Positions 37,110-45,850 of a stretch of DNA of 64,000 bases are shown here, one piece after another. The notes beneath the pieces are model-generated. The model saw only the letters and a program-made list of their open reading frames with translations, was not told the DNA's origin and made no database searches. How positions within the stretch are numbered: the stretch's first letter is position 1; the number at the start of each line of letters is the position of its first letter. The position numbers and the translations under genes were made by a program. The stretch comes from Syntrophales bacterium (GTDB taxonomy: Bacteria > Desulfobacterota > Syntrophia > Syntrophales > UBA6807): NCBI GenBank assembly GCA_040767195.1, contig JAXGPA010000003.1, forward strand, positions 160,001 through 224,000, read 5' to 3'.

Positions 37110-37248
37110 GACAGCGGCTCTTTTCGTTTCCTTGATTTCCGCCGACCCGTCTTTTCCGTCACGGTCCTGTGGCCTTTCTCATAAGCATGGTTTCCCGGAT
37201 CTGAATGTAAGCGGTTCGCCCGGTTTCAATTGAAAGCGGCCATAGGGC

Positions 37249-37965
37249 CTAACACACCGGAGAGTTTTTGTCAATTTTCGCCCGCCTCGCCGTTCTCTTT
37301 TTGACCGGCCGGTTTCGGAGAAGGACATAGGTCGCCCCCGCCCCCCCGTCGCAGGGGCGGGCCGTCGAGAAAGCGGCGATCCATTTGTTCCAGGGGCTCC
37401 GGGTCAGGAAACGGCGGACCGTTTCCTTCAGCACCGGTTCGCCGGCACTGGAGAGCCCCCTTCCATGTATGACGAGAAGGGAGCGCTCCCCTCTTTCGAG
37501 AGTCTCCTGGAGAAAACGGGCCAGCGCGGCTTGCGCCTCCGGGGCGTTCAAACCGTGAAGATCGATGTGACGGCGGACTGAAAACTCCCCCCGGTGAAGC
37601 CGCCGGGCCAGATGATCGGGAACGCCGTGTCCCGTTCCCTCCATGTATTCCGGTGTAGAAGACAGAACGAAACCTTCGCCTTTTCGTATGAGAGCCTTCA
37701 GAAGCGTTATCTCCCCCAGGCCGCCCCCCCCGGAAACGGGATACACCCTCTTTTCCGGACAGGGTCCCACCGGACCGCCACCCTTCAGGGGTTTCACCCC
37801 CTCGGTGGCTTTCAGGAACAGGGCCTCATCGTCCTTCGCGTCCCCTGCCCCGTCTTTTTCCATCACCGGAACGGAGGAATCCCCTACGGCAAAGCCCCCT
37901 TCTTCGAGACGTTCCCGCAGATCCGAGAACGGCCGGTATCGAAAGGTAACCGGGCTTTTCTTCAT
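37249..37965 (-). CDS. Smr domain protein
   Basis: IDLHGL, VIHGRG, DGGAGATYVLL. Confidence 0.9.
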   Translation of the reverse strand: MKKSPVTFRYRPFSDLRERLEEGGFAVGDSSVPVMEKDGAGDAKDDEALFLKATEGVKPLKGGGPVGPCPEKRVYPVSGGGGLGEITLLKALIRKGEGFVLSSTPEYMEGTGHGVPDHLARRLHRGEFSVRRHIDLHGLNAPEAQAALARFLQETLERGERSLLVIHGRGLSSAGEPVLKETVRRFLTRSPWNKWIAAFSTARPCDGGAGATYVLLRNRPVKKRTARRAKIDKNSPVC

Positions 37966-38238
37966 GAAATACCTTCGCAACGTTTTATTGAGGATAAGCG
38001 GAAAAAAGATTTTCTGTCAAGGCGAGGAGAAGCGGTCAACATCAAAAAAAGAAACGGAGCGACAAAATTGTCGTAAACGATTCACCCAAGCCCGGCCTTG
38101 CATCGCCGCTCCCGCAGAAAGGGGTACATCTCAGAAAGTCGACAATTATTTCCTTCGTTTTTTTTCATCAGGTTCGAAGGTCTCGGAGGAGATCGCCCCT
38201 TTCCCATGTCCTGCCTGAAATATTTTTTTCTTCATCTC

Positions 38239-38254
38239 TGGCATGTTTCATGCA
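38239..38254 (+). promoter_or_regulatory. sigma54 (-24/-12) promoter
   Basis: TGGCATG-TTTC-ATGCA with exact GG-N10-GC spacing; palindrome CGACAA-AA-TTGTCG about 170 bp upstream. Confidence 0.75.
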
Positions 38255-38264
38255 TTATCAAAAT

Positions 38265-38420
38265 TCAAAGATGCGACCAGTACCATCGTGCATGGGATCC
38301 CCCCCCGATTCCATACGCGATCCGCCAGTGTGGCTATGTTCCCCCTCCTTGCGTAGGCACTGGCCGGCAGTCAGCATCTGTCACAAAAGGGGAGGCGCAA
38401 GCCTCCCCTCCCCCCTTATT
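38265..38420 (+). ncRNA. Candidate sigma54-dependent small RNA with C-rich loops
   Basis: Closing stem, two long hairpins with C7 and TCCCCCTCCTT loops, terminal hairpin AGGGGAGGC-GCAA-GCCTCCCCT; no credible CDS. Confidence 0.65.
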
Positions 38421-38448
38421 TCCGGCGGAAACAACTTCTTATGAGACC

Positions 38449-38585
38449 CCATCCACAACTCTGTGGGAAACCCTGTGGAAAAATCTGTTCATGGGTCCTG
38501 TAAGATATGAGAAACGGCCCCTTTTGACCGTTTTGCACGAATCTTGTGCACATATTTATTTAAATATATCAATATATTATTTAAA
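38449..38585. promoter_or_regulatory. DnaA-box-like cluster with AT-rich tract and IHF site
   Basis: CCATCCACA, TGTGGGAAA, TGTGGAAAA; TATCAATATATTA matches WATCAANNNNTTR. Confidence 0.55.
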
Positions 38586-38652
38586 CTTGCAGGGGATACG
38601 AAAGGTTAACGGGGGGTCTCGACGAAACGCCCCGCGAGGCCACCGTTCCCCT

Positions 38653-39570
38653 TTATCGGACCGGAAAGAGCCAGTGATGAAAGTTTTTCTCTTTTCCGGC
38701 GAGAATTTCTTCCATGAATTGATTGATTCGAAGGGTGATCGGCCCGGGTACGGGGGCCAGGCTCCGGTTTCCCGTTCGTTCGATGGGAACGACTTTCCCC
38801 AGGGTTCCCGAAAGGAAGATTTCATCGGCCTCTTCGAGGGCTTCCGGTGGAAGTTTCTCCTCCACGGGATTCAGGCCCAGTGCTCCGGCAACTTCGAGAA
38901 CGGATTTGCGGGTGATGCTGTCGAGAATGCCCCCAAGGGATGGCGTCATCAGTCGCCCTTTTTTCACCAGGAAAACCGATTCCGTTCCGCCCTCCGCCAG
39001 GTAACCGTCCCGGTCAAGAAGAAGCGTGTAATCGAACCCCTTCTTTTTCGCTTCCTGGCGGGCCAGCATGCCGTTCAGATAATTGGCGGCCACCTTCGCC
39101 TCCACGGGAACCGTCCCGGGATCGAGTTTCCGCCATGAGGAGAGACCCATGGAAAAACCCTTTTGCGATCCCCCCTGCTGATGGAGGGGGTCCACCGACG
39201 CCGGGATGACAAAAACCGCGAGATCCAGGTCCTCCTCCGGCGGGAGGATCTCGTAAGCGATCCCCCCGTAGTAGCCGACGACCTTGATGTATCCCGACGA
39301 GAGGCTGTTTCTCCTGATGGTCTCGCAGATCGCCCGGGCAATCTCCTTTTCCCCGAGGGGAAGGCGCATTTCCAGGAGACCGGCGGTCTTCATGAGCCGC
39401 GCCACATGCGCGTCAAGGCGGAAAATCGAGGGCCCTTGAAGACCTTCGTAGAAACTCAACACTTCAAAGATGGCGGAACCGCGGCTGACGCTGTGGGATA
39501 GCAGATGCACCGTCGCCTCATTCCAGTCAACGTAGCGGCCGTTCAAAAAAATCGTTTTGTGATGCTTCAT
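38653..39570 (-). CDS. ilvE: Branched-chain amino acid aminotransferase (class IV PLP)
   Basis: FRLDAHVARL, EAKVAANY, LAEGGTESVF, ILDSITRKS, ADEIFLSGT. Confidence 0.85.
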   Translation of the reverse strand: MKHHKTIFLNGRYVDWNEATVHLLSHSVSRGSAIFEVLSFYEGLQGPSIFRLDAHVARLMKTAGLLEMRLPLGEKEIARAICETIRRNSLSSGYIKVVGYYGGIAYEILPPEEDLDLAVFVIPASVDPLHQQGGSQKGFSMGLSSWRKLDPGTVPVEAKVAANYLNGMLARQEAKKKGFDYTLLLDRDGYLAEGGTESVFLVKKGRLMTPSLGGILDSITRKSVLEVAGALGLNPVEEKLPPEALEEADEIFLSGTLGKVVPIERTGNRSLAPVPGPITLRINQFMEEILAGKEKNFHHWLFPVR

Positions 39571-39599
39571 AACTCTCCGGGGGTCTCTCCCCTGTGCGT

Positions 39600-41285
39600 T
39601 CAGGGCCTCGTTAAGAGCCGATATTTAATCCGATGGGGCTGTTCCGCCTTCGCGCCCAGCCGGGCCCGGCGGTCAGCCTCGTATTCGCTGTAACTGCCCT
39701 CGAACCAGACCACCCGGCTTTCTCCTTCGAAACCCAGAATGTGGGTGGTAATCCGGTCGAGAAACCAACGGTCGTGGCTGATGACGAGAACGGACCCGGC
39801 AAAGGTCAGCAGGGCGTCTTCCAGGGCACGGAGGGTGTTGACGTCGAGATCGTTGGTCGGTTCGTCCAAAAGAAGAACGTTGGCCCCTTCCTTCAGCATG
39901 CGGGCTAGATGAACGCGGTTTCGCTCACCCCCCGAAAGCTCGGTTACCCTTTTTTGCTGGTCCGTTCCGGTGAACTGGAATCGGGCCAGGTAAGCCCTGG
40001 AGTTGACCTGCCTGCCGCCGAGGGAAAGAAACTCGTTTCCGCCGGAGATTTCCTCCCAGACCGTTTTTCCCGGATCCAGAACGTCCCGGCTCTGATCCAC
40101 CCAGGCCAGTCGCACCGTTTCGCCCTGTATGACGGTTCCGCTGTCGGGGATTTCAAGGCCGGTGATCATGCGGAACAGGGTGGTTTTCCCCGCGCCGTTG
40201 GGGCCCACGATCCCCACGATGGCTCCCGGGGGAACGGAAAAAGCCAGCCCGTCCATGAGAAGTCGGTCCCCGTATCCCTTGGTGACGCCGTCGGAGGCGA
40301 TGACGAGTTTTCCCAGACGGGGGCCCGGGGCGATAAAAATTTCCTGTTCCCGCTCCCTCTGTTCCTGTTCCTCGTTCAAGAGCTCTTCGTACGAAGCGAC
40401 CCGGGCCTTCGATTTCGCCTGCCTCCCCTTGGGGGACATGCGGATCCACTCCAACTCCCTTTCCAGGGTTTTCCGGCGCTGGGATTCCTTTTTTCCCTCC
40501 TCCGTCAGGCGCCTCTGCTTCTGTTCCAGCCAGGACGAATAATTGCCCTTCCAGGGAATCCCGTGACCCCTGTCCAGTTCCAGGATCCAGCCGGCCACGT
40601 TGTCGAGAAAGTACCGGTCGTGGGTGACGGCAATGATCGTCCCCGGGTAATTCCGGAGGTGATGCTCGAGCCAGGCCACCGTTTCGGCATCGAGATGATT
40701 GGTCGGCTCGTCGAGAAGAAGAATATCCGGTTTCTTCAGGAGAAGCCGGCAAAGGGCCACCCGCCGCCTTTCGCCTCCCGAAATGACCCGGACCGGCATG
40801 TCTCCCGGTGGGCATCGCAGGGCGTCCATGGCCATTTCCAGCCGGGCATCGAGATCCCAGGCGTCCTGGGCGTCCATTTTTTCCTGGAGGTCCCCCTGGA
40901 GGGCAATGAGACGTTCCATTTCATCGTCTGAAAGCGGTTCGGACAGTTTCTCCGAAACGGCGTTGTATGCGTCGACGGTGTCGACAATATCCCGCACCCC
41001 CTCCTCGACGACCTGGCGAACCGTTTTGTCATCGTCCAGACGGGGTTCCTGCTCGAGAAACCCGAGGGTGTATCCCGGGGAAAGAATGGTCTTTCCGATG
41101 AACTCCCTTTCCAGCCCGGCCATGATGCGAAGAAGGGTGCTTTTCCCGGACCCGTTGAGACCGATAACGCCGATTTTCGCTCCATAGAAATAGGAAAGGG
41201 AGATGTCTTTGAGCACCGTGCGGGTGCCGTACACCTTTCCCACGCCGAGCATGGAATAGATCACCTTGTTCGGTTCGTCCGCCAT
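39600..41285 (-). CDS. ettA: Energy-dependent translational throttle ABC-F protein EttA
   Basis: Two ABC cassettes, AMDALRCP, GRQAKSKAR linker, PHRIKY end. Confidence 0.95.
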   Translation of the reverse strand: MADEPNKVIYSMLGVGKVYGTRTVLKDISLSYFYGAKIGVIGLNGSGKSTLLRIMAGLEREFIGKTILSPGYTLGFLEQEPRLDDDKTVRQVVEEGVRDIVDTVDAYNAVSEKLSEPLSDDEMERLIALQGDLQEKMDAQDAWDLDARLEMAMDALRCPPGDMPVRVISGGERRRVALCRLLLKKPDILLLDEPTNHLDAETVAWLEHHLRNYPGTIIAVTHDRYFLDNVAGWILELDRGHGIPWKGNYSSWLEQKQRRLTEEGKKESQRRKTLERELEWIRMSPKGRQAKSKARVASYEELLNEEQEQREREQEIFIAPGPRLGKLVIASDGVTKGYGDRLLMDGLAFSVPPGAIVGIVGPNGAGKTTLFRMITGLEIPDSGTVIQGETVRLAWVDQSRDVLDPGKTVWEEISGGNEFLSLGGRQVNSRAYLARFQFTGTDQQKRVTELSGGERNRVHLARMLKEGANVLLLDEPTNDLDVNTLRALEDALLTFAGSVLVISHDRWFLDRITTHILGFEGESRVVWFEGSYSEYEADRRARLGAKAEQPHRIKYRLLTRP

Positions 41286-45564: not shown

Positions 45565-45850
45565 GTTCGCCTCCTTACTTCCTGATACCATCGAAGGGCC
45601 GCCGGTGACAAGAATCCGTTGAAAAAAGCGGCCCGAACCGTTATAGTTCCCCTGTCCCGTCACGTTCATAAACCCGCCGCACCGCTCTTTAAAACCGTCT
45701 TCGATCCCTTTCCGGACCTTCCCGCCGCGATAAAAGGCTTTCAGGATCGTCCAGATCCTTCGGACAGCGGTGAACGGTCTTCGCTGTTTTCCGCATGATT
45801 TTCATCAGGGGGAAAAGGGGTGTCCCCCTGAAAACAATAAGGAGGGAACC

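Follow-up and report, generated by a model that had tools for sequence, protein, structure and literature searches.

In methanogenic communities, members of the Syntrophales break down fatty acids and aromatics. Of the bacterial small RNAs (sRNAs) that bear on the present locus, Qrr depends on Hfq, and GlmY acts as a decoy for RapZ. Five related systems have been described. In Desulfovibrio vulgaris, the sigma54 response regulators DVU1419, DVU0679 and DVU0653 have non-coding RNA targets, and DVU1419 is autoregulated and labelled envelope stress (PMC3333781, PMC4641369). In Salmonella, the ZraP-ZraSR system responds to envelope stress and is expressed from divergent sigma54 promoters (PMC4987338). 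The Qrr RNAs of Vibrio (PMC10162802) and Pxr of Myxococcus (PMC5684412; PMC11928866) are driven by sigma54, and the cuckoo/CcsR RNAs display C-rich loops, a signature of repressor sRNAs (PMC4615179).

We compared these systems with a locus in a 64-kb window, the whole stretch of DNA analysed (64,000 nucleotides), from the source genome G000 (2.39 Mb, 98.8% complete). G001 denotes a relative of the same genus (g1), and L-numbers denote other loci. The RNA type of 38265-38421 in the window is called type A; types B-E are other sequence types. The features of the type A locus are as follows.

38060-38073, no strand: enhancer site 1, palindrome CGACA-N4-TGTCG, a predicted sigma54-activator site
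38140-38153, no strand: enhancer site 2, imperfect, with the CGACA half-site kept, from the alignment of type A loci
38239-38254, plus strand: sigma54 -24/-12 consensus TGGCATG-N4-ATGCA, with a predicted +1 near 38265
38265-38421, plus strand: predicted small RNA, type A, about 155 nt, from fold and conservation, both ends predicted
38269-38277 with 38370-38379, plus strand: closing stem of a three-way junction, from the fold
38285-38299 with 38307-38321, plus strand: hairpin 1 (14 of 15 pairs), C7 loop at 38300-38306, from the fold
38324-38364, plus strand: hairpin 2, the predicted seed, with the 11-nt loop TCCCCCTCCTT (that is, UCCCCCUCCUU) at 38340-38350, from fold and alignment
38388-38421, plus strand: terminator-like end, comprising a hairpin (38388-38409), a C6 run and a short U-tract, from sequence and fold

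An earlier note had proposed a sigma54-dependent sRNA here from the letters alone, and the sigma54 site, the palindrome, the three-way junction, both hairpins and the final hairpin all lay at the positions it had given. Its enhancer-like palindrome at 38060-38073 stood, but it had not reported the second site (CGACA at 38140), which is conserved. The structure that it had drawn by eye was identical to both the minimum free energy (MFE) fold and the centroid fold of 38265-38420 (-65.8 kcal/mol, z -5.49), which none of 200 shuffles equalled. The strict sigma54 consensus occurs seven times in the 2.39-Mb genome, and the palindrome eight times; the palindrome followed by a spaced half-site occurs twice, and both of these enhancer pairs precede a sigma54 site and a hairpin RNA. 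The note had also asked for a genome-wide count of paralogs, which gave a divided answer: the type A sequence is single-copy by blastn and nhmmer, ruling out a multicopy repeat, but the enhancer pair with a sigma54 site recurs once, at a type B locus on C1. Two other strict sigma54 sites, at C1:561064 and C1:628479 (both minus strand), have no obvious start codon nearby.

Searches against Rfam returned nothing near threshold for the window, for nine type B, type C or other loci, or for ten further loci. The lone CcsR1 match (21.1 bits vs a gathering threshold of 65.3) fell at 37383-37450, outside the RNA element. The element itself was without a match, a result that the note had counted in favour of novelty. 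The literature searched contained no regulatory RNA described for Syntrophales, nor this RNA or its enhancer; motif catalogues such as PMC11109978 could include it. The RNA gene appears to be undescribed, and the kind of system is already known. The present system resembles the cuckoo/CcsR RNAs (PMC4615179) in having two hairpins with anti-SD-like C-rich loops and several copies per genome, but the loops themselves differ (CCUCCUCCC in cuckoo/CcsR, CCCCCCC and UCCCCCUCCUU in type A). Moreover, the cuckoo/CcsR hairpins are adjacent and form no multiloop, in contrast to the three-way junction here, and both promoter type and taxon differ.

Could the transcript encode a short peptide? A 57-codon plus-strand frame starts at 38271. 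It has no ribosome binding site, however, and it is the only long frame on that strand; a 1-nt indel shifts it in G001, L064 and L067. Because of this frameshift between relatives, we regard a peptide as extremely improbable, and the earlier statement that no credible open reading frame (ORF) follows the promoter was borne out.

Type A was found in one genus only among the genomes searched. A DNA search of 61 genomes, which made no use of the loop-2 motif, yielded one homolog, in G001; the loop-2 motif with three or fewer mismatches was present in 2 of 251 class genomes, and two of 150 genomes gave covariance-model scores above 100 bits. Synteny through the Smr or aminotransferase genes led to no type A element in other genera. 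Ten metagenome contigs also carried type A; these were selected by the exact loop-2 motif, and the invariance of loop 2 among them is therefore a product of selection. Between G000 and G001, the RNA was 88% identical and the spacers 49% and 44%, and the neighbouring gene agreed at 53 of 117 four-fold sites. Across three comparisons with relatives, identity was 88-91% for the RNA, 88-94% for the promoter and 44-61% for the spacers. Promoter, both CGACA sites, RNA body and terminator were thus kept across type A loci, and the spacers drifted.

Each of seven homologs, folded singly, gave the same plus-strand structure. In G001, L064 and L067, hairpin 1 has undergone substitutions and an indel, yet its stem pairs anew; the loop is C-rich and 7-9 nt long. 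As to the check for homologs and covariation proposed in the earlier note, relatives had the conserved structure and the sigma54 motif, but two-sided changes were seen at 0 of 45 type A pairs in the seven sequences, and shuffles were not beaten. Covariation was absent because the sequences were too few and too close; for the closing stem, eight of nine pairs were invariant, hence the lack of covariation support.

Both flanking genes lie on the minus strand: 37249-37980 encodes an Smr-domain protein, and 38653-39570 a class IV aminotransferase, whose gene converges on the RNA. The aminotransferase gene was downstream in all 12 type A loci and the Smr gene upstream in 10 of 12; of the other two, one is truncated, and L067 has no Smr gene and still retains the whole type A unit. 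The constant downstream neighbour, together with a T-run directly after the last hairpin on the minus strand, would suit a reading in which no independent RNA exists, this hairpin terminating the aminotransferase gene and the rest being conserved DNA-level or 3' UTR sequence. We consider this very unlikely, given that the same terminator, promoter and enhancer stand at loci with quite different neighbours, and that the plus-strand fold is common to all seven homologs, whereas the minus-strand fold is not. The hairpin at 38388-38409 may also end the converging gene. A terminator scan called it on neither strand; on the plus strand six C's separate it from the short U-tract, making an atypical terminator.

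Our preferred reading is that of a real sigma54-driven non-coding RNA, which we hold to be very likely. It has its own (predicted) promoter, is non-coding and has a conserved structure, the attributes of a trans-acting base-pairing sRNA. We also compared contigs from four public runs with 37200-39600, at contig level only. RNA contigs from X1 covered both flanking genes, with none over 37973-38662. In X5 (RNA), contigs of relatives crossed the intergenic region into the neighbouring gene and may represent DNA or read-through. Contigs from X9 covered 37506-37746 only, and X6 is probably DNA. On the minus strand, a sigma70-type promoter (10/12) for the Smr gene lies at 37991-38020, only 40 bp from enhancer site 1, and for this reason the activator could also affect Smr.

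Weak covariance-model matches led to a sister locus in the source genome at C1:336178. At this type B locus the promoter is nearly identical to that of type A and both CGACA sites recur; the hairpin there has a AAUCUCCUC loop, and the terminator is similar.

C1:335986-336312 in G000 (L140), and C45 in G001 (L141): sister sRNA candidate, type B, about 110 nt, between NUDIX and hypothetical genes

The similarity between the 5' hairpins of types A and B was not significant, with 189 and 181 of 2000 shuffles scoring as high. Four other palindromes in G003 and G008 had no sigma54 site at any of them, and thus gave no extra paralogs. The hairpin-plus-C-run terminator end was present in 27 of 321 class genomes, with a sigma54 site upstream, judged by eye, in 20 of the 27 and absent in seven. 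In 17 of 19 chosen loci, a perfect or near-perfect palindrome lay at -179 to -194 and a half-site at -98 to -106 from the -24 element. A looser promoter pattern matched mostly unrelated sigma54 promoters. The pattern combining enhancer and sigma54 site occurred in 7 of 11 genomes of the same order and in 1 of 290 others in the phylum; a reversed control gave 0 of 301.

Scanning GTDB for enhancer plus promoter produced at least 120 loci. Titles among the matches listed (80) were mostly Smithella, Syntrophus, Syntrophaceae, Syntrophales and unnamed Deltaproteobacteria; the few distant taxa look like chance or mis-binning. By motif class, the 120 matches listed comprised 84 type D, seven type B, six type C and three type E loci, nine that led into ORFs and 11 others, so that 100 of 120 were short structured non-coding units of types B-E. 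Among the matches listed, a hairpin followed by a T-run closed 92 of these 100 RNA-type loci (median 127 nt); of these 92, 73 had an unpaired CUCC, CCUC or CUCUUC. The commonest form was as follows.

L142-L261 (e.g. L154:1720-1844): type D, three stem-loops with a conserved ACGGGCAUG loop

Type D sits between a kinase gene and, in 42 loci among the matches listed, a converging AAA+ gene, which we take to be RarA/MgsA. Two-sided changes were seen in 11 of 15 predicted type D pairs, seven of them in the terminator (50 of 74 usable sequences aligned). The most conserved type D loop is not C-rich. Types A-E have layout and terminator in common; their RNA bodies are not clearly shared. We regard type A as a real, conserved sRNA gene, apparently the genus-level version of a sigma54 regulon slot that recurs across the order. 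Conservation, the sister locus and the order-wide layout give good support to the earlier proposal of a sigma54-dependent non-coding RNA that is under enhancer control and has no Rfam match. Two observations from these scans stand apart. In L226, what follows the enhancer pattern is an ORF that, from its start, is presumably nifH-like; this is probably a chance match. In L113-L115 (family f6), a conserved 250-nt intergenic unit with the same terminator type and no sigma54 site is possibly another non-coding RNA.

The order-wide loci also point to a regulator. A divergent histidine kinase gene was upstream in 75 of 120 loci among the matches listed; types B and C have a ZraP-like gene there. 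For 63 loci among the matches listed the best match was one and the same G000 kinase, C1:773852-775663. In G000 this kinase gene is followed by one for a receiver-AAA-HTH activator (C1:772437-773798) and preceded by a weak PF13801 gene (23.6 vs a cut-off of 29.2); PF13801 scored over its cut-off in L162 and L135 (61 and 36 bits). The activator missed the cut-offs of both AtoC (526 vs 714) and ZraR (447 vs 760), AtoC being nearest, and the kinase missed that of ZraS (206 vs 479). All four non-g1 genomes in which both were placed (G002, G003, G007 and G013) have an ortholog of the activator no more than about 3 kb from the RNA. Because most loci are head-to-head with its partner kinase family, often beside a ZraP-family gene, an AtoC/ZraR-like activator is the likely regulator. 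For type A, synteny makes it likely that the regulator is the activator C1:772437-773798 with the kinase C1:773852-775663, in a ZraP-family-led operon.

In the operon of G000 and G001, the ZraP-like gene has one palindrome and a sigma54 site in front of it. The same enhancer also stood before a ZraP-like ORF in five loci among the matches listed, two of them titled Desulfobacterales, and in G008 the RNA lies between the enhancer and a phytoene-synthase-like gene, with no RNA there in G000 or G001. We infer that the operon is autoregulated and that the RNA gene was relocated to two sites in genus g1, where it would have left the sensor operon to give two sisters, A (in the window) and B (on C1), whose loops differ. 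By analogy, the signal would be envelope or periplasmic stress. The 11 bases before the start codon of the ZraP-like gene (G000 C1:776113-776125) are identical to the 5' arm of the type B hairpin, probably by chance, as the identity is not kept in G001.

This arrangement can be set against the regulatory precedents. D. vulgaris is the nearest, with a two-component sigma54 activator driving a non-coding RNA in the same phylum. Its motifs TGTGC-N8-GCACA (DVU1419) and GTATA-N5-TATAC (DVU3381, ZraR-like) differ from CGACA-N4-TGTCG, in a comparison that covered these two motifs. As in ZraPSR (PMC4987338), a ZraP-family gene stands beside a kinase and a sigma54 response regulator, but the divergent output of the Syntrophales type is a non-coding unit, and the regulator is nearer AtoC and passes neither cut-off. 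Qrr has in common with type A a sigma54 promoter, two upstream activator sites, a receiver-type activator and post-transcriptional repressor logic (PMC10162802), all of which are predicted here; by contrast, the LuxO site is TTGCAWWWTGCAA, no Rfam match was obtained for the present RNA, and Hfq was not found in its genome. Pxr is likewise a sigma54 sRNA and is connected with an NtrC-like two-component system; it has three stem-loops, and its host is without Hfq (PMC5684412; PMC11928866). However, the pxr gene immediately follows pxrR, which encodes its regulator, whereas the RNAs of types A-E are head-to-head with the operon or dispersed and are without an Rfam match. Type A is an RNA with predicted Qrr/Pxr-like control and cuckoo-like loops that belongs to none of these families.

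In the mechanism that we propose, the AtoC/ZraR-like activator would bind the two CGACA sites, and sigma54 polymerase would transcribe a trans-acting sRNA of about 155 nt, whose exposed C-rich loops would pair with G-rich ribosome binding sites and repress translation. The seed would be loop 2, which would recognise sites that match AAGGAGGGG(G/A), and Hfq would probably not be needed. The CCUCCUU of loop 2 is shared with the 16S tail of the genome, a 7-nt copy of the anti-SD, and the C-run extends the loop match. On balance, we favour repression of translation mainly by SD pairing as the action of type A.

Our home-made target scan covered 1948 called genes, with ungapped helices and accessibility on both sides. 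Genes ranked near the top encode an enoyl-CoA hydratase (C1:620677), a 2-oxoacid oxidoreductase subunit, a MaoC dehydratase (C10:97040), a pyridine-nucleotide disulphide reductase, an SLT-LysM protein, an acyl-CoA ligase (C6:162282) and a class IV aminotransferase other than the one beside the RNA. The top predictions are mostly metabolic rather than envelope genes. Because the crude gene caller chose starts by SD strength, SD enrichment is circular and the targets form a lead list. Feedback on the kinase mRNA was not predicted (rank 1147). The CaiB/BaiF ribosome binding site AAGGAGGG (45839-45846), put forward earlier as a target, did not stand out: the gene family was confirmed and the site was present, but it ranked 75 of 1829, and the same 8-mer occurs at 47 of 1949 called starts. 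The extended site was kept in both G000 and G001 in three of eight ATG-start ortholog pairs (from 30 of 39 G001 matches), and similar target sites also occurred in genera where type A was not found.

Several top duplexes fell just inside coding starts, the C7 loop 1 prefers G-runs over SD cores, and two co-regulated sisters in one genome would allow RNA-RNA cross-talk. The RNA might then pair with G-rich RNA in ways other than blocking ribosome binding sites: as an RNA sponge, by opening an inhibitory stem so as to activate a target, or by pairing within coding sequence. We regard this as distinctly unlikely in view of the anti-SD copy in loop 2 and of the use of loop 2 in 77 of the top 100 predictions, a figure subject to the circularity of SD-chosen starts.

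Alternatively, a real sigma54-driven RNA could serve to titrate an RNA-binding protein through its C-rich loops or its fold, a decoy role like that of GlmY towards RapZ. Stems that are near-invariant like the loops would suit a shape read by a protein, and no specific mRNA target stands out. Hfq, CsrA and ProQ were not found in the 98.8% complete source genome; genes for RapZ and for KhpB, which we take a Jag_N match to represent, are present. We nevertheless think a decoy unlikely: RNA bodies vary widely between types under one enhancer, which changing pairing targets fit better, and the loops match the anti-SD signature of repressor sRNAs (PMC4615179).

Returning to repression by SD pairing, we offer a wider scheme tentatively. 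Across Syntrophales, a ZraP/ZraSR-like sensor might have an sRNA as its main output, with enhancer and promoter fixed and the RNA body remodelled or replaced at least five times. In g1, two dispersed, Hfq-independent sisters with different anti-SD seeds might throttle the translation of acyl-CoA and amino-acid metabolism genes, linking envelope sensing to syntrophic carbon flow. The system would provide a defined circuit across an order, with predicted sensor, activator, DNA site, promoter and RNA; a natural series for the evolution of sRNA bodies under a fixed promoter; and a predicted example of anti-SD pairing in a genome in which the searches located neither Hfq nor CsrA nor ProQ.

The 3' flank of the type A gene has features of its own. 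A 55-nt AT-rich inverted-repeat insertion follows the terminator in L058, L059 and L062, and thus in some strains only. Between the terminator and the 3' end of the aminotransferase gene lie DnaA-box-like repeats (38462 and 38474) with flanking motifs, at 38450-38493 and 38522-38545, which are kept in all type A loci. An oriC at these boxes was ruled out, since dnaA, perfect boxes and the skew minimum all lie near 942 kb on C1. Part of the stretch has a 14/15 match beside the palindrome at C1:776493, and 10 other one-mismatch matches occur genome-wide.
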